DNA of 64,000 bases from an uncultured Acidimicrobiia bacterium. Its GTDB lineage: Bacteria > Actinomycetota > Acidimicrobiia > Spongiisociales > JAENVV01. The translations under genes were made by a program, and so were the position numbers. Positions 3 through 12,738 of this stretch are shown here, one piece after another (positions within the stretch are counted from its first letter, which is position 1; each line of letters starts with the position of its first letter). The stretch covers positions 36,180 through 100,179 of the forward strand of contig CAZRJG010000002.1 of NCBI GenBank assembly GCA_964600365.1, in the 5' to 3' direction. Below the pieces are notes generated by a model. It did not search any database. It saw nothing but the letters and a program-made list of their open reading frames with translations, and was not told the origin of the DNA.

Positions 3-1079
3 GAGCAAGACGTCGCCCGGATGTTCTGTGACATCACCACACCCGACGGGGTGGCGTTCGAGGGAGACCCCCGCCATGTCCTCCGGCGGACGCTGCGAAC
101 CGCCGCCGAGGAGGGCTACCGCTTCTACGTCGGCCCCGAAATGGAGTTCTTCTACTTCGAGGACAGCTCACCGAATCCCGTGGTCCTCGACCACGGGGGT
201 TACTTCGACCTCACCCCCCTCGATGTCGCCCAGGAGTACCGGCGCATGACCATCGACCACCTCGAGCACCTCGGGATCCCGGTGGAATCTTCCCACCACG
301 AGGTGGCCCCGAGCCAGCACGAGATCATCCTTCGCTACGACGATGCGCTCACCATGGCCGACAACGTGATGACCGCCCGCCTCGCGGTCAAAGAGGTGGC
401 GATGGCCCGGGGCAAGTACGCCACGTTCATGCCCAAGCCCCTCGAGGGACACGATGGCTCGGCACTGCACCTCCACCTCTCCCTGTTCTCGGGGGACGAC
501 AACGCCTTCCACGATCCCGATGCGGCCGATGGCCTCAGCGACGTGGGTCGCTCGTTCATCGCAGGACTCCTCCACCACGCCCCCGCCTTCACTGCCATCA
601 CGAACCAGTGGGTGAACTCCTACAAGCGGCTCGTGGGGGGCTTCGAGGCACCGGCACACACCACGTGGGCCCACAACAACCAGTCGGCCCTCGTGCGGAT
701 CCCCACCCCCAAGTCGGGGAAGCAGGAGTCGTCACGCATCGAGCTTCGCTCGCCCGACGCGGCATGCAATCCGTACCTCGCCTTCGCCGCTCTCCTCGCC
801 GCGGGCCTCGATGGTGTCCGAAGGGGCCTGGAGCCCATGACAGAGCTCGACGGCAACGCCTTCACCCTCTCCGACGCACAGTTGGCCGAACGCGGAATTC
901 GCAGGCTCCCCCAGACGCTGTCCGAGGCCCTCGACGCCCTCGAGGGGTCGGAGCTCATGCGGGCGACGCTCGGCGAGCACACCACCGACTGGTTCCTCAA
1001 GAACAAGCGACGCGAGTGGGAGCGGTACCAACACCACGTCTCGCGCTTCGAGTTGGAGCAGTACCTCCCGGTGCTCTGA
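3..1079 (+). CDS. glnA: Glutamine synthetase, 5'-truncated at window edge (catalytic C-terminal domain present)
   Basis: The reading frame is open from nt 3 with no upstream stop. The translation carries the GS catalytic-domain signature (GPEMEFFYF, HLHLSLF, NxYKRL, SxRIP-like motifs). It ends TGA at 1077-1079. Confidence 0.85.
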   Translation, partial: EQDVARMFCDITTPDGVAFEGDPRHVLRRTLRTAAEEGYRFYVGPEMEFFYFEDSSPNPVVLDHGGYFDLTPLDVAQEYRRMTIDHLEHLGIPVESSHHEVAPSQHEIILRYDDALTMADNVMTARLAVKEVAMARGKYATFMPKPLEGHDGSALHLHLSLFSGDDNAFHDPDAADGLSDVGRSFIAGLLHHAPAFTAITNQWVNSYKRLVGGFEAPAHTTWAHNNQSALVRIPTPKSGKQESSRIELRSPDAACNPYLAFAALLAAGLDGVRRGLEPMTELDGNAFTLSDAQLAERGIRRLPQTLSEALDALEGSELMRATLGEHTTDWFLKNKRREWERYQHHVSRFELEQYLPVL

Positions 1080-1705
1080 TGACGATCGCAGTCCACCCCG
1101 CCGAACTCAGCCCCCTCGTGGAGGAGGCGTTGCTCATGCTCGGGCGGGACCATGAGCTCGTGGACGAGGACGCCCTCACGGGTACTCCCTCGTGGAGCTG
1201 CCTCCTCCTCGACCTCGGCGACCAACCCGCGCGGCGGCTTCGCCTCTCCCGACCCATCGCTGAGTCAGGGGTCCCGGTCGTGGTCATCATCCCCTCGGAC
1301 CGACTCCTCCTCCTCGAACAGGAGTCGTGGCCGGCCGACTTCGTGATCGACGTCGCCGATCCGATCGAGATCCGGATCCGCCTCTCCCGCGCGATCGGGG
1401 ACGAGGAGGCGTCCGATGAGCTCGTCCACGAGGACCTCGTACTCGACCTCGCGACGTACCAGGCCACCGTCGGGGGCGACCCGATCGACCTCACGTACAT
1501 GGAGTACGAGTTGCTCCGGTACTTCGTCGAGCACAAGGGCCGCGTGTGGTCGCGCGAGCAGATCCTCCAGCACGTATGGGGCTACGACTACTTCGGCGGC
1601 GCCAGGACCGTCGACGTCCACGTCCGTCGCCTCCGGGCCAAGATCGGTGAGGAGCGGGCCAATTGGATCACGACGGTGCGTTCCGTCGGCTACCGCTTCG
1701 GCTAG
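1079..1705 (+). CDS. OmpR-family winged-helix regulator with a degenerate receiver-like N-domain (GlnR-like orphan regulator)
   Basis: The C-terminal region (LTYMEYELLRYFVEHKGRVWSREQIL...GYRFG) is a typical OmpR/PhoB wHTH. The N-domain has the receiver-like LLLDL and VVVIIPSD motifs but lacks the N-terminal acidic DD pocket. The ATG overlaps the glnA stop (TGATG). Confidence 0.7.
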   Translation: MTIAVHPAELSPLVEEALLMLGRDHELVDEDALTGTPSWSCLLLDLGDQPARRLRLSRPIAESGVPVVVIIPSDRLLLLEQESWPADFVIDVADPIEIRIRLSRAIGDEEASDELVHEDLVLDLATYQATVGGDPIDLTYMEYELLRYFVEHKGRVWSREQILQHVWGYDYFGGARTVDVHVRRLRAKIGEERANWITTVRSVGYRFG

Positions 1706-1715
1706 GCGCCGCTTC

Positions 1716-2582
1716 CTAGAGCGAGGCCCACGGCTCGTTCGAGAGGTACTTCCACCCTGCGTCGGGCAGGAGCATCACCGACGTGCCCCCCTCCCGGGTG
1801 AGCGTGTCGATGGCTGCGTGGATGATGGCCCCCGACGACGTCCCGACGAAGTGACCCTCCGCCAAGATCGTCTCGTGGACCATGGCCTCTGCCGTGGCGC
1901 GGGGCACCTGGTGGCGATCGGTCACGAGTGAGAGGTCCGCCACCGGCGGCTGGAACGGGTCGTCCTGGGAGCGCATTCCGCTGATCGGGTCCTCGTAGAA
2001 GGGTTCGACGGAATGGATCCGGATGCCCGGCCACCTATGCACGAGGCCTCGGCTGTTCCCCGTGATGGTGCCACCGGTCCCATACGCGGCGTGCATGTGG
2101 GTCGGGGGCTCCTCGAGCGGCCAGTCGCGGACGATCTCGAGCGAGGTCCCGAAGAAATGGGCGTAGGCGTTCCACCGGTTCGCGTACTGGTTGAGGATCA
2201 CTCCCTCGCCCTCGGCAGCGAGTTGCTCGGCGCGGCCGAGGGCATCGGCAGGGGCCCCTTCGACCTCGATGAGCTCGGCGCCGTAGGCCCGGAGCAGCGT
2301 CTTGCGCTCCTCGGTCGCTGAGGCGGGCAGGCAGATAGCCACAGGGTGGCCATTCGTCACCCCGAGCCGGGTGAGGCCGATCCCCGTGTTCCCCGACGTC
2401 GCCTCGACGATCGGTTCGCCCGGACGCAAACGGCCTGTCTGGCGGGCGTTGATGAACATGAACCACGCCGGTCGATCCTTGATCGAGCCCGTCGGGTTGT
2501 ACCACTCGAGCTTGGCGAACAGCCTCGTCCCAGCAGGCGCAAGGCTGCGGAACTCGACGAGAGGTGTGTTGCCCGGTTGCAT
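1716..2582 (-). CDS. PLP-dependent cysteine synthase family protein (CysK/CysM-like)
   Basis: SIKDR lysine motif, GNTGIGLT and GTGGTITG glycine loops; 288 aa. Confidence 0.8.
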   Translation of the reverse strand: MQPGNTPLVEFRSLAPAGTRLFAKLEWYNPTGSIKDRPAWFMFINARQTGRLRPGEPIVEATSGNTGIGLTRLGVTNGHPVAICLPASATEERKTLLRAYGAELIEVEGAPADALGRAEQLAAEGEGVILNQYANRWNAYAHFFGTSLEIVRDWPLEEPPTHMHAAYGTGGTITGNSRGLVHRWPGIRIHSVEPFYEDPISGMRSQDDPFQPPVADLSLVTDRHQVPRATAEAMVHETILAEGHFVGTSSGAIIHAAIDTLTREGGTSVMLLPDAGWKYLSNEPWASL

Positions 2583-3116: not shown

Positions 3117-4247
3117 ATGCCGATTATCGACGACATCTACACCGCGCTCAAGGGCGTGATCGACCCCGAGTTGGGCTCCGACGTCGTCGAACTGGGCATG
3201 ATCCACGACGTTCGCGTCGACGGATCACACGCCGACATCGACCTTGCGCTCACCATCGCCGAGTGCCCCCAGCGAGGGCAGTTGGAGGAGGACACCCGAC
3301 GCAAGGCCCGATCCGTCTCGGGTATCGAGACCGTCGAGGTGCACACAACGGCAATGACGGGTTCGCAGCGGTCGGCCCTCATGGAGACCGCCCGCAGGAA
3401 GGCCCGGCAGCGGGCCGCGCCAACCGCGATCGCACCGACGACCCGCGTGCTCGCCATCGCCTCCGGGAAGGGCGGCGTCGGCAAGTCCACCACGACCGTG
3501 AACCTCGCCGCTGCGCTCTCGGGAGCAGGCCGCAGCGTCGGCATCCTCGACGCCGACATCTGGGGCTTCTCCATCCCTCGCATGCTCGGCACCCGTGATC
3601 GGATCACCGCAAACGACGACCGACAGCTCATCCCGGTCATGGCCCAGGGCCTCGAGATCGTCTCGACCGGCCTCATCACAGAGTCCGAGGAGACCGCGCT
3701 CATGTGGCGTGGCCTCATGCTGAGCAAGGCCCTCGAGCAGTTCCTCACCCAGGTGCGGTGGAGTGCCCTCGACTACCTCCTCATCGACATGCCACCCGGC
3801 ACGGGCGACGTCCAGATGGCCCTCTCGCGCATGCTCCCCCAGGCCGAGATGGTGGTCGTGACCACTCCCCAGCGCACCGCACAGAAGGTCGCAGTCCGGG
3901 TCGCCGACATGGCCCGACGGTCCTTCATGCCGATCGCGGGGGTGGTCGAGAACATGACCTCCTTCGTGTGCGACCACGGCGAGGAGTATGCCCTGTTCGG
4001 TCGCGGGGGCGGGGACGCCCTCGCCGAGGAACTCGAGGTACCCGTGCTCGGTCGGATCCCGCTGGACTCCAGCCTCGTAGAAGGCGGGGACACGGGCAGG
4101 CCAGCAGCCATCCACGATCCCAGCGGTCCCGCTGGCAGCGCGTTCGGTGCGCTCGCGACCCGGATCCTCGAGGTCGTCCCACCAGCGGAGGCATCGTGCG
4201 GGGTGCGGATCGAGGAACTCCTCGAGTCACTCCCGCCCCGGCCCTGA
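3117..4247 (+). CDS. Mrp/ApbC Fe-S cluster carrier ATPase with N-terminal DUF59
   Basis: N-terminal DUF59 (VIDPELGSDVVELGMI), Walker A (ASGKGGVGKST) and the CxxC region (FVCDHGEE). It is divergent from the HesB gene. Confidence 0.85.
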   Translation: MPIIDDIYTALKGVIDPELGSDVVELGMIHDVRVDGSHADIDLALTIAECPQRGQLEEDTRRKARSVSGIETVEVHTTAMTGSQRSALMETARRKARQRAAPTAIAPTTRVLAIASGKGGVGKSTTTVNLAAALSGAGRSVGILDADIWGFSIPRMLGTRDRITANDDRQLIPVMAQGLEIVSTGLITESEETALMWRGLMLSKALEQFLTQVRWSALDYLLIDMPPGTGDVQMALSRMLPQAEMVVVTTPQRTAQKVAVRVADMARRSFMPIAGVVENMTSFVCDHGEEYALFGRGGGDALAEELEVPVLGRIPLDSSLVEGGDTGRPAAIHDPSGPAGSAFGALATRILEVVPPAEASCGVRIEELLESLPPRP

Positions 4248-4285
4248 TCCCGATCGGTGTCCTTCGGCCCACGTCACCCAAGGAA

Positions 4286-4430
4286 GCCCTCGTGGCCCGA
4301 CCTCATCCTCCTCGACATCAACATCCCGAAGAGGCGCTCCGTGGAATCCCCGTGGTGACCATCACCACCTCGGGTGACACCGAGGACGTCCGCCTCGCCT
4401 ACCGGAGCGGCACACGCTCCTGTCGCTGTC
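4286..4430 (+). pseudogene. Remnant of a response-regulator receiver domain (frameshifted, N-terminus missing)
   Basis: Two adjacent frames read SWPDLILLDINIPKRRSVES(stop) and then IPVVTITTSGDTEDVRLAYRSG. These are the classic PDLILLDinMP and vvvLTtsgeeedv..ay receiver motifs. No start codon and no acidic pocket segment. Confidence 0.35.
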
Positions 4431-4522
4431 GGGGTTGTCGGGGAGCTCCACGATGCGAAACCAGCCGTGGCCGATCGTCATCGGGGCGTCGACGAGTTCC
4501 TCCCGCCTCCTGCGCTGATCCC

Positions 4523-5743
4523 TCAGGGACAGAGCCCTGCGACGAGCGGCGTAGGGTTCACCGCCGACCCACCGCCGGGGTGGTACTCGAAATGCAGGTG
4601 CGGGATGTGCTCGGGCGCGTTCCCACTGGTTCCCACATAGCCCAGCATCGCCCCCACGCCCACCGACTGCCCCTGCGAGAGCCCCGGGGCATGGGAATCG
4701 AGGTGCGCGTAGTAGAAGGTGTCGCCGGAGTCCCCGGCAAGCCACACGGTGAACCCACCGAGCGACGAATTCCGCATGCTCCTGACCGTGCCCGACTCGA
4801 TGGCAACGACCGGGGTCCCTCGGGCGGCGAGCATGTCCACACCCTCGTGTGAACGACCACCCGATCGGGGAGCGCCCCAGGTGTCGGTGAACCTGGAGTA
4901 GCCACCCACTGGACACACCTGCGACGCCGAGACCGCCACCTCCGTCGTGGTCGTGGTCGTCGACGTCGTGCTCGGAAGCGTGGTCGTCGTCGTCGTGGGC
5001 GCACTCGTCGACGTCGGAGTTGGAAGCGTGGTCGTCGACGTCGTGCTCGGAAGCGTGGTCGTCGTCGTGGTCGTGGTCGTCGAGGTGGCGAGCCTCGCCG
5101 CCTCCTCTGCGGCAGCGCGAGCTGCTGCTTCAAGGGCCGCCTGGCGAGCAGCTTCCTCCTCGGCGGCCCGGCGCATCCGGAGGTCGCGGTAGATGGCGCT
5201 CGCCTCCTCCAGGCGGAGGTTCACCTCGTTGGCCCGCGCTTCGAGTTCCGGCCCGACGATGGCGAGGTCGGCCTCGGCGACGGCCACGTCGGCCTCCAGC
5301 CGTCGGAGGGCGGCGATCCTCGCGTCGAGCTCATTGAGCATCGCCCGGTCCGACTTGCCGACCTCCTCCAGGTAACCAACCCCGGCCCCGGCGCTCTCCA
5401 CCGTCTCGCTCACGAAGAACGCGGCGACGTTCGCCACCGAAGCATCCATGTAGATCTCGACGGCGCGCGCGAGGGCAAGCTCCTCGAGCTGGCGCACTTC
5501 GAGCCGAGCATCGAGCAACGCCGCAGCCAGCGCGTCGGCCTCCGCCTCGAGCAGCGCGTCCCTACGGAGGGTCTCCTCCCACAGCCCGACGACCTCGTCG
5601 AGTTCTGCGCCGAGTTCCTCGAGTCGACGTTCGGCCTCGTCGAGGTCCTCGTCGGAGACCTGGAAGGCCGCCGTGGGCAGGGCGACGACGAGCACGAGGG
5701 CAACGAGGGCCAGGAGGCGCGCCCGCACCATGAGCCGGCTCAT
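4523..5743 (-). CDS. Secreted M23 family metallopeptidase (coiled-coil N-region, Thr-rich linker, C-terminal LytM domain)
   Basis: Signal-like start MSRLMVRARLLALVALVLVVALP. C-terminal M23 motifs (HEGVD, YYAHL, HLHFEYH). The central run TTTTTTTTTLPSTTSTTT is encoded by direct repeats. Confidence 0.8.
   Translation of the reverse strand: MSRLMVRARLLALVALVLVVALPTAAFQVSDEDLDEAERRLEELGAELDEVVGLWEETLRRDALLEAEADALAAALLDARLEVRQLEELALARAVEIYMDASVANVAAFFVSETVESAGAGVGYLEEVGKSDRAMLNELDARIAALRRLEADVAVAEADLAIVGPELEARANEVNLRLEEASAIYRDLRMRRAAEEEAARQAALEAAARAAAEEAARLATSTTTTTTTTTLPSTTSTTTLPTPTSTSAPTTTTTTLPSTTSTTTTTTEVAVSASQVCPVGGYSRFTDTWGAPRSGGRSHEGVDMLAARGTPVVAIESGTVRSMRNSSLGGFTVWLAGDSGDTFYYAHLDSHAPGLSQGQSVGVGAMLGYVGTSGNAPEHIPHLHFEYHPGGGSAVNPTPLVAGLCP
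4954..5066. repeat. Perfect 40-bp direct repeat (two copies, 73 bp apart) inside the Thr-rich linker of the M23 peptidase gene
   Basis: gtggtcgtcgacgtcgtgctcggaagcgtggtcgtcgtcg occurs at 4954-4993 and again at 5027-5066, embedded in (ggtcgtcgt)n microsatellite-like sequence. Confidence 0.8.
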
Positions 5744-6534
5744 CGCAGGAGCCTCACCAACGAGCCCCACAGGTCGGTGGTCCGCTCGAACGCCACCGCG
5801 CCGTCATCCACGAGCTTGCCGACGTGGGCGGCGACCGAGTGCGCGGCGATGGGGTGGAGTTCGGGGTCCACGTCGGCATACACGTCTTCGACGATCGCTC
5901 CGATGCTCCCGGCGCCCGACCGGAGGGCCGCGATGACCTGCTCCTCGCGCTCGAGCCTGTGGGAGATGTAGTGGTCGATCACCCCGGCGGGGTCGTCGAT
6001 CTCAGGACCGTGGCCAGGGAAAAGGCGCTCGAGCGTGAGGTCGCGCACCTTGCGGAGGCTGGCGAGGTAGGCGGTGAGGTCCTGCACCATCACCGTGGAG
6101 CCGCCCATGATGTGGTCCCCGGTGAACATCCACCGATCGAGCACGAAACACAGGTGGTCATCGGCGTGACCGGGCGTGTGGAGGACCTCGAGCGAGGAGC
6201 CGGCCACCTCCACGGTGCTGCCCTCCGAGAGCTGCTCGTCGGGCCGGAACTCGGCCGAGGGTGCGTAGCCCAGCGCCACCGTCCCCCAGTTCCGGGCCAG
6301 GGGGTTGGCCAGCGGCGCATGGTCGAGGTGGGTGTGGGTGACAACGACGGAGGCGACCCGCCTTCCGGCAACGACCCGATCGATCGCAGCAGCGTGCGCA
6401 TCGATCACGGGACCGGGGTCGAGCACGATCACCTCGTCGGCGTCGCCGATGACCCACGTATTCGTGCCGAGTCCTGTCCAGGGGCTGGGATTGGGGGCGA
6501 GGACCTTCTCGACCCTCACGCGTCGTGCTCCCAC
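5740..6534 (-). CDS. MBL-fold metallo-hydrolase (hydroxyacylglutathione hydrolase-like)
   Basis: VVTHTHLDHA (HxHxDH), HTPGHADDH; 264 aa. Confidence 0.75.
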   Translation of the reverse strand: MGARRVRVEKVLAPNPSPWTGLGTNTWVIGDADEVIVLDPGPVIDAHAAAIDRVVAGRRVASVVVTHTHLDHAPLANPLARNWGTVALGYAPSAEFRPDEQLSEGSTVEVAGSSLEVLHTPGHADDHLCFVLDRWMFTGDHIMGGSTVMVQDLTAYLASLRKVRDLTLERLFPGHGPEIDDPAGVIDHYISHRLEREEQVIAALRSGAGSIGAIVEDVYADVDPELHPIAAHSVAAHVGKLVDDGAVAFERTTDLWGSLVRLLR

Positions 6535-6995
6535 GCGTCGACGTCGATGACCGTGCCGGTCTCCCCCGACACGACGACCTGGCCAGCGAATCGCTTCGCG
6601 ACTCGCGCGTGGATGAGATCCCGCACTGCGGGGACGAGGAGTGCGAAGCCCACGACGTCAGTGAAGAACCCCGGGGAGATGAGCAGGGCGCCCGAGACGA
6701 GGATCGCCGCGCCGTGCGTGAGCTCGCGACCGGGCAGGGATCCCGAGGAGAGCCGTTCCCGGAAACGAGACATGACGGCGAGGCCGGCGCGGCGCACCAA
6801 CACGGATCCCGCAAGTGCGGTCCCGAGGGCGATCAGCAGTGCCGCCAGGAGCCCGATCTCGCGCTCGACCAGCACGAAGACCACGAGCTCCACCAGCGCA
6901 ACCGCTCCGAACACGCCGAAGAGGCTCACGACGGGCAGGATACCGGGGGCATGGATATGGGCCCGGGCGCCCCCGGGGTGTCCGCGAGCGCCCAC
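6516..6995 (-). CDS. fxsA: FxsA family inner-membrane protein
   Basis: The C-terminal part of a long antisense ORF matches FxsA: two N-terminal TM segments and the LLISPGFFTDVVGFALLVPAVR motif. Start assigned to a GTG at 6993-6995; start uncertain. Confidence 0.6.
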   Translation of the reverse strand: MGARGHPGGARAHIHAPGILPVVSLFGVFGAVALVELVVFVLVEREIGLLAALLIALGTALAGSVLVRRAGLAVMSRFRERLSSGSLPGRELTHGAAILVSGALLISPGFFTDVVGFALLVPAVRDLIHARVAKRFAGQVVVSGETGTVIDVDAWEHDA

Positions 6996-8333: not shown

Positions 8334-10099
8334 TGCCGCTCATCGGCACCGCAGGACACGTCGACCACGGCAAGTCCACCCTCATCGCCGCCCTCACCGG
8401 ACGGGATCCGGACCGCTGGGCCGAGGAGAAGGAGCGAGGCCTGACGATCGACCTCGGCTTCGCATGGACTCACCTCGGCGACACCGAGGTGTCCTTCGTC
8501 GATGTGCCCGGCCACGAGCGGTTCCTCAAGAACATGCTCGCCGGGATCGAACCGATCGACGTCGCCCTGTTCGTCGTGGCAGCGGATGAGGGTTGGTCGG
8601 CCCAGTCGGAGGAACACCTCTCGGTCATCGACCTCCTCGGCATCTCCACGGGTGTCATCGCCCTCACAAAGGTTGATCGCGTCGACGACGACCTCGTGGA
8701 ACTCGCTTCCCTCGAGGCAGAGGAACGCCTCACCGGGACGTCGTTGGAAGGGGCACAGGTCGTGCCGGTCTCCGCTGTGCGGGGCGACGGAATGGACGCA
8801 TTGCGCAGCGCCCTCGCCGGGCTCGTCGCGCACGCGACCCCTCGGCCCGGCCCGCCGACCCTCTGGATCGACCGCTCCTTCTCGGTTGCGGGCGCCGGGA
8901 CCATCGTCACGGGCACCCTGTCGGGGGGATCGGTTGCGGTCGGCGACGACCTCATCCACCTCCCCACGGGGGATCGCACGCGAATCCGCACCATCCAGAG
9001 CCATGAGACGGACCTCGCCGAGGTCGGCCCGGGGCGACGGATCGCACTCGGGGTTCCCGACCTCTCCCGTGGGGCGGCGGTCCGCGGGTCCGTGCTCACG
9101 GTTCCCGGGGTGCGCACCACCTCGACCACGCTGCTGGTCGACCTCCACCCCGCCCGTGGCTTCGAGGACGCCACCTCGAGCCGCGGTGCGTTCCACGTCC
9201 ACCTGGGATCGGGCGACTGGCCGGCAACACTCCGGACCATCGATGAGAGGACCGCACTCGTGGACCTCGACACCCCGATCCCGGTGGTGGTCGGGGATCG
9301 CTGCATCATCCGCGATGCGGGGCGACGAGCCGTGGTGGCGGGAGGTGTCGTCCTCCATCCCTTCCCCGAGCGTCGTCGACGAGCCGCCGCCGCGGCCGCA
9401 GTGCGCCTCCGATCCACACGAGGGGGCACGCCGGATGACGTCGCCGACGCACTGCTCGAGACAGCCGGCGTCGCCGAGCTCGCCAGGCTCGCAACCGCGT
9501 CGGGGGGCGGCGCGCCTCGACGGGCGGTGGTCGCAGGCACGGTGGCCGCCACTCGGGAACAGTTGGAGGCCGCTGCCGGGCGGGCGGTCGCGGCGGCGCG
9601 GGCCCATCACCTGGAACACCCGCTCAGAGACGGCATCCCCAAGGCCGAGCTGGGTGCGGCATCGGGCCTCCCGCCCGAGTTCGTGGATGCCGTCATCGCC
9701 GCAAGGCCGGAGCTCGAAGCAGTCGGCGCAACGGTCGCCGCCGACGGGCATCGGCCCGGGCTCTCCCACGCCCACGAAGCCGCGTGGCGTGCAGCTCGCG
9801 GCCTCCTGTCCGACGCTGGCTTCTCGCCGCCCCGGGCCAGCGAGCTCCTCGCCGACGGCGAGCTCACACACGTGCTCACGCGGCGAGAACAGCTCGTCCA
9901 GGTCGGTGAGTTCCTGTACCTCCCGGACACGCTCGCCGAGGTGGAAGGGGTGCTTCGCACGCTCCCGTCACCGTTCACCGTCTCGGAGGCGAAGGACGCG
10001 CTGGGCATCTCGCGCAAGCACGCGGTGCCGCTCATGGAGTGGTGCGATGCGAACGGCGTGACCCGGAGGTCGGGCGACGGCCGGGCGGTGCGGGACTAG
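8333..10099 (+). CDS. selB: Selenocysteine-specific elongation factor
   Basis: GTPase motifs ([21 protein letters not shown]) followed by a long winged-helix C-terminal extension; 588 aa. The ATG overlaps the selA stop. Confidence 0.85.
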
Positions 10100-10914: not shown

Positions 10915-12738
10915 ATGCCCATACAGATCCAACTCCTCGGGCAACCCCGCATCTCCTGCGAGTCCAAGGAGGCGTATCGGTTCAGGGGCCGGAAGAGTTG
11001 GGCCCTGCTCGCCGTCCTCCTCCTGAGTGACAGAACCCGGACCCGTTCCGAACTCGCATCACTGCTGTTCTCCGAAGCGAACGACCCGCTCCGTGCACTT
11101 CGCTGGAGCCTTGCCGAGATCCGTCGCGCGCTGGGCGAATCGGGCTCCGTCGAGGGCGACCCGGTGGAGATCCGCCTCCCACCGGGATCGGTGGTCGACA
11201 TCGAGGTGCTGACACGGGGCTCGTGGCGGGACGCCGTGCGCCTCGAAGGACTGGGTGGCGACCTCCTCGACGGCTTCGCCATCCGGGATGCGCCCGCCTT
11301 CTCTTCCTGGCTGCTCTCCGAGCAACGGCACGTCGCCGCGGTGTCGGAGGCGATCCTCCACGAAGCGGCACTGGGGTCGATGTCCGCGGGCGACACGACC
11401 GACGCCATCCGGTTCGCGGTGCGTGCGACGACGCTGAATCCCTTCGACGAGAACCACCAGGCGCTCCTCCTCCGGCTGTACCGCCGAGCCGGCGATGAGG
11501 AGTCGGCAGCGCGCCAGTTCGCTGCGTACAAATCCCTCGTCGACCGGGAGTTGGGCACGACACCCGGGCCGGTCATCCATGCGGCGATGCGTGTCGAGCC
11601 AGCGGACCTCGCCGCCGAGCCGAGTCCCGCAGAGGTGGAGGCGATCATCGAGGCCGGCTCGGCCGCCGTGGCCGCGGGGGCCATCGAGTCGGGCGTCGAG
11701 TCCCTTCGGACCGCGGTACGCCTCGCCGATCGCGCGGGGGAACGGGGCGCTCGCATCCGGTCCCGTCTCGTCCTCGCCGAGGCACTCATCCACTCCCTCA
11801 GGGGCTTCGACGAGGACGGCGTCGCGGCACTCCACGAGATCGAGGCAATCGCCAAGGGCCCAGGCGACAACCCCTCGGTGGCCCGGGCGCGCGTCGAACT
11901 GGGCTACGTCGACTTCCTCCGGGCCCGCTACGACCGCTCCGTGAAGTGGCTCACCGATGCCCTTCGGACCGATGCCGACCTGCCAACCATCGCCAAGGCG
12001 TCGACGTACCTCGGGTGCGTCGAGAGCGACCGGGCCGACTACCCGACCGCCCGCGCGCTCCTGGAGCGGGGGCTGCGATCCGCGCAGGACGCGGGGAGCC
12101 TCCGACTCGAGGCGTTCGCAGCGTCGATGCTGGGGCGGATCGACCTGCTCCGGGGCGACCTCACCGCGGCGACACGGCATCTCGACCGAGCCACGGAGGT
12201 GGCCGAGCGGGACCACTGGCTCGCCTTCCTGCCGTGGCCCCAAGCGCTCCGCGGGGAGGTCGCGCTCACCCGTGGCGATCTCGACGAGGCCGAGGAGTCG
12301 CTGCACCATGCCTTCGCCCGTGCTTGTCAGCTCGGCGATCCCTGCTGGGAGGGACTTGCCTCGAGGGGCCTCGCCCTCGTCGCGGAACGCCGGGGTGACG
12401 TCGGGTCGGCATTCGACCTCCTCGTCGACGCGCGCAGGCGAAACGGCCGGTTCGCCGACCCCTACGTGTGGCTCGACGGCTACATCCTGGACACGCAGTG
12501 CACGCTGGGGCTTCGCCACGACCATCCCGACACGGCCAGGTGGGTCGAGGCGATGCAGGACCTCACGTCCCGGACCGACATGAAGGAACTCGTTGCACGA
12601 GCGCTGCATCACAGCGGTCGACTGGGGAACGCCGGCGACGGGGAGGCGGCCGCAATGGTCGCCTCGGAGATCGAGAGCCCCGTGCTCACCGGGCTGATCG
12701 GGAACGCGCCCGGGCGAGCATCGGGCCGGGCGGGCTAG
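10915..12738 (+). CDS. SARP/AfsR-family transcriptional regulator (OmpR-type wHTH + BTAD + TPR-like C-region)
   Basis: The N-terminal part (IQLLGQPRISCESKEAYRFRGRKSWALLAVLLL...) is an OmpR-like DNA-binding domain. It is followed by a BTAD (LYRRAGDEESAARQFAAYKSLVDRELGTTPG) and Ala/Leu-rich TPR-like repeats. Start taken at the internal Met 10915. Confidence 0.75.
   Translation: MPIQIQLLGQPRISCESKEAYRFRGRKSWALLAVLLLSDRTRTRSELASLLFSEANDPLRALRWSLAEIRRALGESGSVEGDPVEIRLPPGSVVDIEVLTRGSWRDAVRLEGLGGDLLDGFAIRDAPAFSSWLLSEQRHVAAVSEAILHEAALGSMSAGDTTDAIRFAVRATTLNPFDENHQALLLRLYRRAGDEESAARQFAAYKSLVDRELGTTPGPVIHAAMRVEPADLAAEPSPAEVEAIIEAGSAAVAAGAIESGVESLRTAVRLADRAGERGARIRSRLVLAEALIHSLRGFDEDGVAALHEIEAIAKGPGDNPSVARARVELGYVDFLRARYDRSVKWLTDALRTDADLPTIAKASTYLGCVESDRADYPTARALLERGLRSAQDAGSLRLEAFAASMLGRIDLLRGDLTAATRHLDRATEVAERDHWLAFLPWPQALRGEVALTRGDLDEAEESLHHAFARACQLGDPCWEGLASRGLALVAERRGDVGSAFDLLVDARRRNGRFADPYVWLDGYILDTQCTLGLRHDHPDTARWVEAMQDLTSRTDMKELVARALHHSGRLGNAGDGEAAAMVASEIESPVLTGLIGNAPGRASGRAG

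Follow-up and report, generated by a model that had tools for sequence, protein, structure and literature searches.

A GlnR-like regulator gene joined to a GSI-alpha glutamine synthetase gene in Acidimicrobiia

Introduction

The master regulator of nitrogen in Actinobacteria, among them Mycobacterium tuberculosis and the antibiotic-producing Streptomyces, is GlnR. Its gene is unlinked to the glutamine synthetase (GS) gene glnA in both Streptomyces (SCO4159 versus SCO2198) and Mycobacterium (Rv0818 versus Rv2220). Here we describe a locus in which a gene for a GlnR-like regulator is instead joined to a glnA gene of type GSI-alpha, in what is predicted to be one unit. It lies at the left end of a 64,000-nucleotide stretch of DNA, hereafter called the window, from an uncultured Acidimicrobiia bacterium (assembly GCA_964600365.1, contig CAZRJG010000002.1, positions 36,180 to 100,179 of the forward strand). 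Sequence comparison establishes that the GSI-alpha gene overlaps the gene of a predicted pseudo-receiver regulator, that such genes are paired across the class, and that relatives of the window carry a putative operator of GlnR format.

Regulators of the OmpR/PhoB family that operate independently of phosphorylation are found in several bacteria. In HP1043 of Helicobacter and ChxR of Chlamydia, the receiver fold is a constitutive dimerisation module whose catalytic residues are degenerate. These proteins differ from the regulator described here in their DNA-binding domains and in their biology, and to our knowledge they are not linked to glutamine synthetase. For actinobacterial GlnR, a 2023 review (PMC10704036, citing Lin 2014) describes a ‘phosphorylation pocket’ that is not conserved, an Asp50 that is unphosphorylated and serves dimer stability, and no known kinase. 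The review still calls the input signal of GlnR unknown, and it describes the GlnR box as 5-nucleotide sites with an ‘irreplaceable’ fourth adenine and 6-nucleotide spacers (PMC10704036). Solved structures include a M. tuberculosis GlnR transcription activation complex (8HIH) and the S. erythraea GlnR DNA-binding domain bound to its operator (8HML), and the cryo-electron microscopy complex has four protomers on four sites (PMC10235972).

In two described systems, a nitrogen regulator and a GS gene lie close together. Streptomyces coelicolor encodes GlnRII (SCO2213) near the GS gene glnII (SCO2210; PMC10704036, Table 1). This protein is likewise a GlnR-like member of the OmpR family without phosphorylation residues or an adjoining kinase, and its recognition helix has Ala/Arg where GlnR has Arg195/Ala199 (PMC10704036). 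In Firmicutes, the glnRA operon also combines a nitrogen regulator with a GSI-alpha gene, and in Bacillus feedback-inhibited GS controls the regulator (PMC9249791). The likeness to the present locus is a functional analogy. The Firmicutes regulator is a non-homologous protein of the MerR rather than the OmpR/PhoB family, and its gene comes first in the operon, the opposite of the order seen here.

Results and discussion

Overlap of glnA with the regulator gene

The window starts about 255 nucleotides (about 85 codons) inside glnA, with the glnA promoter beyond its left edge. The glnA frame is open from base 3 and ends with a TGA codon at 1077-1079, whereas the ATG codon of the regulator occupies 1079-1081, and thus the two genes have one base in common. 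Direct reading and Pfam matches agree with the coordinates, the overlap and the domain assignments of the initial annotation, which had been made without database searches. The GS fragment in the window scores 402 bits with TIGR00653 because it is truncated, and the full-length orthologue of 443 amino acids in the collinear contig L081 scores 493 bits (cut-off 429). Similarly, the linked GS matches GSI-alpha structures from Bacillus, Listeria, Staphylococcus and archaea over their full length with 420-475 bits, versus partial matches of about 250 bits to the GSI-beta structures of E. coli and M. tuberculosis. By these scores, the glnA gene linked to the regulator is of the GSI-alpha (Bacillus/archaeal) type, unlike the GSI-beta glnA that is under Streptomyces GlnR.

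There is no GGAGG-like Shine-Dalgarno sequence within the 15 nucleotides 5′ of the regulator ATG, which suggests that the regulator may be translated by termination and reinitiation. The same feature is compatible with an internal promoter. Perhaps the genes overlap by accident, or the assigned start codon is wrong, and the regulator is expressed independently from a promoter of its own inside glnA. We consider this highly improbable, given that the homologues of 208 amino acids begin at the same Met, that conservation runs from residue 1, and that tight junctions recur among regulators with 42-55% identity (see below).

Pairing of the two genes across the class

The locus was surveyed in one genome per GTDB species, which gave 80 loci with 12-17 kb of sequence per genome. 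All 80 are from Acidimicrobiia or from unclassified Actinomycetota metagenome-assembled genomes (MAGs), plus the isolate IMCC26256. In 79 of the 79 evaluable loci, the gene immediately upstream, on the same strand, is a GS gene with 53-86% identity to that of the window, and this linkage persists down to regulators that are 42% identical. The link between the regulator and glnA proposed in the initial annotation thus recurs throughout the survey.

There are 75 junctions with an assignable start codon, taken from 70 survey loci, the contigs L081-L085 and the window. The genes overlap in 30 of the 75, as TGATG in 22 and as GTGA in eight. They are separated by 0-10 nucleotides in another 21, by 11-80 nucleotides in 23 and by a longer gap in one. 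Tight junctions are found repeatedly in lineages whose regulators share 42-55% identity. The overlap and its conservation suggest that glnA and the regulator gene would be co-transcribed as one unit and that translation of the regulator would be coupled to that of GS.

We found in the open literature that was searched no description of GlnR together with Acidimicrobiia or its genera, nor of a glnA-glnR pairing. What is new is an operon shared with GSI-alpha throughout the class and, adjoining it, an operator that faces other GS genes. The regulator itself is a new, uncharacterised branch of a known kind, namely GlnR. The initial annotation had also called the arrangement unlike that of Streptomyces. 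This stands for GlnR itself, going by the locus tags of glnR and glnA, and has to be qualified for the paralogue glnRII, which is near glnII. Judged by its description, GlnRII is three genes from glnII and has no translational coupling to GS.

The closest genome relative (L001, CP070681.1) is unusable for the glnA promoter, and the contigs L081-L085 were used instead. In L001, a gap stands in place of the 5′ half of glnA and connects the remainder to the gene for an ABC substrate-binding protein, and therefore the gene order there is untrustworthy. Runs of 100 N are evenly spaced in this ‘chromosome’-level MAG, at 1603-1702, 5213-5312, 8849-8948 and 12488-12587.

A receiver fold without the phosphorylation residues

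An AlphaFold2 model of the regulator, made from 60 homologues (predicted local distance difference test score 86), has a (beta-alpha)5 receiver fold followed by a winged helix-turn-helix, the latter being canonical as first annotated (Table 1). In this model, beta1 (residues 3-6) leads into H6-P7-A8-E9 at the position of the acidic pair, beta3 (41-45) ends with D45, beta4 (67-71) is followed by P72-S73, and beta5 (87-90) is followed by D91 at the position of the conserved Lys. Thus, the Asp of the LLLDL motif and the HPAELS segment are both located where the initial annotation had placed them.

Neither the model nor any of 113 aligned relatives has an acidic pair after beta1, and the Lys column holds K in none of the aligned relatives. 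Among 53 diverse relatives, the motif after beta1 is [F/Y/H]-P, with an invariant Pro. Of the 60 closest relatives, 30 carry Glu and 25 carry Asp in the acceptor column, which in the wider family is filled by Cys, Val, Ala, Glu or Asp. The alternation of Asp and Glu suggests a structural negative charge, and charge and structure are the probable reasons for the retention of Asp45, as they are in GlnR. Profile searches likewise gave no match of the window regulator to Response_reg (PF00072) at E<=0.1 and none for the 53 family members at E<=0.01, whereas 35 of these 53 match GlnR_1st (PF21695) at the latter threshold. In addition, no HisKA or HATPase_c domain is encoded within 8 kb on either side in the contigs collinear with the window.

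One possibility is that the protein is nevertheless an ordinary phospho-accepting response regulator, that its kinase is encoded elsewhere, and that the loss of the pocket is an artefact of alignment. The correct structural position of D45 and the location of E9 near the end of beta1 would fit this explanation. However, it can be given hardly any weight beside the missing acidic pair, a Lys column that is never K, an acceptor position occupied by Glu in half of the clade and by C, V or A in the wider family, the lack of Response_reg matches and the lack of a kinase gene nearby. The loss of both the acidic pair and the Lys, in sequence and model, implies that the regulator is not operated by Asp phosphorylation, and a kinase-driven switch of this sort is excluded as far as sequence allows. 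Both the structure prediction and the column statistics therefore uphold the claim that this is no normal phospho-accepting receiver, to which they add the loss of the Lys, unmentioned in the initial annotation. Loss of the pocket is already a published hallmark of GlnR and a trait of the family, and hence it is not new.

Two faces of the pseudo-receiver are conserved. The alpha4-beta5-alpha5 dimer face has invariant or nearly invariant residues at D87, F88, P92, E97 and R101, and the regulator would multimerise through this face. The same degree of conservation applies to P7, W39, D87, F88 and P92 on the face of the former phosphorylation site.

Similarity to actinobacterial GlnR

An exact-sequence look-up of the window regulator returned no record. 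Its closest relatives among solved structures are GlnR proteins, as had been proposed, with single-sequence scores of 131, 126 and 115 bits for 8hig, 8hih and 8hml versus 86 bits for the next best. The family profile gives 186, 182 and 154 bits for these three, versus 115 bits for RegX3 and MtrA. Among DNA-binding domains, that of S. erythraea GlnR (8hml) scores 115 bits versus 86 for the next, or 154 versus 104 with the family profile. Similarly, the best Foldseek match is M. tuberculosis GlnR (8hih_N, E 2.8e-12), and 8hig is labelled as the same domain.

The recognition helix RTVDVHVRRLRAK is identical in actinobacterial GlnR and the window regulator. In addition, 12 of the 14 DNA-contact residues of M. 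tuberculosis GlnR (PMC10235972) are identical. The two altered contacts, K153 to M141 (nucleotides 1499-1501) and N214 to S202 (nucleotides 1682-1684), are fixed in all 53 relatives, and they may go with a preference of the family for sites of the GTGAA/GTTTC type. At both helix positions that discriminate GlnR from GlnRII, the window regulator has the GlnR state (R183/A187 within VHVRRLRAK) and not the GlnRII state. GlnR and the window regulator also have in common the receiver fold with a winged helix-turn-helix, the unconserved pocket, the lack of a partner kinase and an Asp at the acceptor position, with D45 placed by alignment opposite the GlnR Asp and the phospho-Asp of RegX3 (D52). The window regulator differs in being shorter, with 208 amino acids and no C-terminal tail.

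When 1.84 billion representatives of 50%-identity clusters were searched in full with HMMER, 178 proteins matched at E<=1e-30, and the top 150 include representatives that are 64-80% identical to the GlnR proteins of M. tuberculosis and S. erythraea. Only two of the 106 near-full-length nearest representatives keep both the Asp and the Lys. By this sequence evidence, the regulator sits in a large assemblage of pseudo-receiver proteins that includes GlnR.

A four-site array beside the GS genes

The contigs L081-L085 encode regulators 83-87% identical to that of the window and are collinear with its first 10 kb at 73-81% nucleotide identity. Their gene order is a divergent glnII of 339 codons, an intergenic region of 168 nucleotides, and glnA-glnR. 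In L081, glnII occupies 5485-6501 of the minus strand and scores 624 bits with NF041605. The intergenic region contains the array TTTTC-n6-GTTAC-n6-GTGAA-n6-GTTTC (in L081, TTTTCCCTCCCGTTACCCGAATGTGAAGAGCATGTTTC at 6577-6614), the equivalent of which would lie, by collinearity, about 310-350 nucleotides to the left of window base 1. When the opposite strand is read, every site of the array has the form nnnAC, with A4 as the best-conserved base. This is the format of the cis-element of actinobacterial GlnR, which likewise has four 5-nucleotide nnnAC sites with 6-nucleotide spacers adjoining GS genes.

By a strict pattern, 40 of 70 loci have a four-site array with an 11-bp period upstream of glnA. 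We trained a matrix on 38 of these instances (38 nucleotides, 42 bits of information), and in 840 kb of loci scanned on both strands it gave 55 matches of at least 15 bits. All those of at least 34 bits adjoin GS genes. The untrained relatives L081-L085 have arrays that score 35-38 bits. Altogether, the array adjoins glnA, glnII or a GSI-beta gene in 55 loci of the 80-locus set (L002-L080), plus L081-L085.

There are three arrangements. In type A, found in about 25 loci including the relatives of the window, the array lies between a divergent glnII and glnA-glnR. In type B (14 loci), it precedes the series glnII-glnA-glnR, all in one direction. In type C (16 loci), a GSI-beta paralogue takes the place of the divergent glnII. 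Read in canonical GlnR orientation, the array is directed at glnII or the GSI-beta gene, its last site being 51-155 nucleotides (255 in one locus) from the start codon of that gene, and in types A and C glnA-glnR begins 39-148 nucleotides from the array on its other side.

The locus in Acidimicrobiia can hold up to three types of GS gene, GSI-alpha, GSII (glnII) and GSI-beta, with one shared operator. A GSI-beta paralogue is located, for example, at 3239-4477 of the minus strand in L003 (TIGR00653, 625 bits).

Rfam searches of the window and of L081 gave neither a riboswitch nor a leader element. In 11 of 72 loci, including L020, L025, L028, L031, L039, L047 and L055, a TANNNT hexamer precedes the start codon of glnA by 6-7 nucleotides, versus 0-1 at most other offsets. 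This suggests that glnA mRNAs may be leaderless in part of the class, which we regard as a lead rather than a result.

A proposed nitrogen circuit and the case for a local paralogue

Our preferred explanation, to which we assign a probability of roughly 0.7, is that the locus encodes a regulator of the GlnR family that is coupled to a GSI-alpha glnA gene, binds the array and activates neighbouring GS genes. A multimer of the regulator would bind head to tail on the four sites, which is the number that GlnR protomers fill in the cryo-electron microscopy complex, and the divergent glnII or GSI-beta gene would be activated from the array. In type B loci, the regulator would also activate its own glnII-glnA-glnR operon. 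In such a circuit, the level of the nitrogen regulator would depend on how strongly the housekeeping GS is expressed, and the additional GS genes nearby would in turn be switched on by the regulator.

Several observations weigh against this explanation, some of them concerning the identity of the protein. The window regulator scores 20.5 bits with GlnR_1st, under the cut-off of 27, and the Asp50-Arg52-Thr9 triad of GlnR is not kept, with G47 at the +2 position and H6/P7 at the position of Thr9. When a profile of the N-terminal domain alone is compared with the PDB, GlnR receivers score 26-31 bits (28 for 4o1h/4o1i) and ordinary receivers up to 45. A specific match of this domain to GlnR receivers, which were outscored by ordinary receivers and by the PleD adaptor domain, was thus rejected, and the assignment to GlnR consequently rests on the DNA-binding domain, the whole-protein scores and the context. 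A neighbour-joining tree of the 106 nearest representatives with anchors is star-like, has no support values and gives no decision on whether the regulator is sister to actinomycete GlnR. The clade placement suggested as a check on the initial annotation therefore favours GlnR by similarity to solved structures, for the winged helix and the whole protein, and is left undecided by the tree.

Other observations of this kind concern the operator. Other OmpR-type proteins can bind GlnR boxes, as was reported in 2019. About 15 related loci have glnA-glnR without an array. Read in canonical orientation, the array faces away from glnA-glnR in most loci, and hence autoregulation cannot be regarded as established. 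The glnA promoter and its array are outside the window and are inferred from relatives. A scan of the 64-kb window with the 38-nucleotide position weight matrix and with two-site sub-matrices gave nothing above shuffled controls. The search for GlnR boxes that had been proposed thus succeeded beside the operon in relatives and yielded no site above chance in the window.

Perhaps the regulator is instead a lineage-specific, GS-linked paralogue of GlnR that acts locally on neighbouring GS genes, with another protein serving as the global nitrogen regulator. It would then resemble the Streptomyces precedent of a GS-linked, GlnR-like regulator without phosphorylation residues. The only arrays found sit at the GS locus, and none is in the 64-kb window. 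The tree and the N-terminal domain, which is not specifically GlnR-like, also leave room for it. However, the evidence on targets covers only the 12-17 kb surveyed per genome, the two discriminating positions of the recognition helix are in the GlnR and not the GlnRII state, and the 150 nearest of the 1.84 billion representatives include bona fide GlnR clusters. We therefore regard a local paralogue as a serious alternative, though a distinctly less probable one than a GlnR-family nitrogen regulator.

GS as a possible partner of the pseudo-receiver

A further possibility, compatible with the preferred explanation, is that the pseudo-receiver has been reused as a docking module for the GSI-alpha protein encoded upstream. 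Feedback-inhibited or substrate-loaded GS would then bind the pseudo-receiver and switch DNA binding, and thus act as the nitrogen sensor, much as GS governs the non-homologous MerR-type regulators GlnR and TnrA of Bacillus. It is also conceivable, with the same long odds, that the overlap of stop and start codons would serve the joint production of both partners. The adjacency is class-wide, and two thirds of the junctions either overlap or have gaps of at most 10 nucleotides. Five residues on the face of the former phosphorylation site, P7, W39, D87, F88 and P92, are conserved although the catalytic residues are gone. In addition, GSI-alpha is the type described as controlling GlnR in Firmicutes (PMC9249791), and the review cited above calls the input signal of actinobacterial GlnR unknown (PMC10704036). 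However, regulators are commonly linked to their targets in operons without any physical interaction, the conserved loop residues may be structural only, and about a third of the loci have spacers of 11-80 nucleotides. These considerations cause us to treat GS sensing as a speculative and rather unlikely addition to the GlnR-family circuit.

The finding extends the GlnR system to Acidimicrobiia, an early-branching, mostly uncultured and environmentally abundant class. It also hints at an ancestral locus in which GS genes and their regulator were together, of which glnA-glnII-glnRII of Streptomyces is possibly a remnant. Moreover, GS becomes a candidate for the partner or sensor of a receiver that is blind to phosphorylation. 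If the linkage reflects co-expression only, the result is a tidy addition to comparative genomics and no surprise. Its importance would grow if the linkage reflects a sensing complex of GS and GlnR. The Bacillus switch between GS and GlnR/TnrA would then have been reinvented by convergence, and there would be a lead to the input of actinomycete GlnR.

Features and surroundings of the locus

The features of the locus are collected in Table 1.

Table 1. Positions of the glnA-regulator locus and its neighbour in the window
Feature	Position	Strand	Basis or remark
3′ part of glnA (GSI-alpha, last 358 codons and TGA)	3..1079	+	Pfam Gln-synt_C, E 4.8e-124
TGATG stop/start overlap of glnA and regulator gene	1077..1081	+	direct reading; A at 1079 common to both
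glnR-like gene, atypical OmpR/PhoB-family regulator of 208 amino acids	1079..1705	+	pseudo-receiver and winged helix
N-terminal pseudo-receiver domain, residues 1-110	1079..1408	+	AlphaFold2 secondary structure, column statistics
GAC codon of Asp45, phospho-acceptor position	1211..1213	+	aligned with GlnR Asp and RegX3 D52
C-terminal winged helix-turn-helix, residues 114-208	1418..1702	+	Trans_reg_C, E 1.3e-28, residues 133-207
Recognition helix, about residues 172-189	1592-1645	+	
CysK/CysM-like gene for a pyridoxal phosphate (PLP) enzyme, convergent	1716..2582	-	PALP, E 1e-51

The convergent CysK/CysM-like gene indicates that the glnA-regulator unit ends with the regulator, and it also neighbours the unit in the relatives L081-L085. 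Only 10 nucleotides separate its stop codon from that of the regulator, which is too short for a hairpin terminator. The encoded protein scores under the NCBIfam cut-offs for cysteine synthase.

Farther along, the contigs L081 (13645-16627) and L083 run on into selA and selB, the genes for selenocysteine synthesis and for the matching elongation factor, in a part that corresponds by collinearity to about 7-10 kb of the window. A tRNA-Pro and a tRNA-Gly were the only tRNA genes found in the window, which gave no tRNA-Sec.

Another open reading frame of the window, at 4523-5770 of the minus strand, encodes a low-complexity linker rich in Thr, Ser and Pro (TTTTTTTTTLPSTTSTTTLPTPTSTS) between a coiled-coil-like N-terminal half and a C-terminal domain. 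The collinear genes of the relatives L081 and L083 match Pfam Peptidase_M23.

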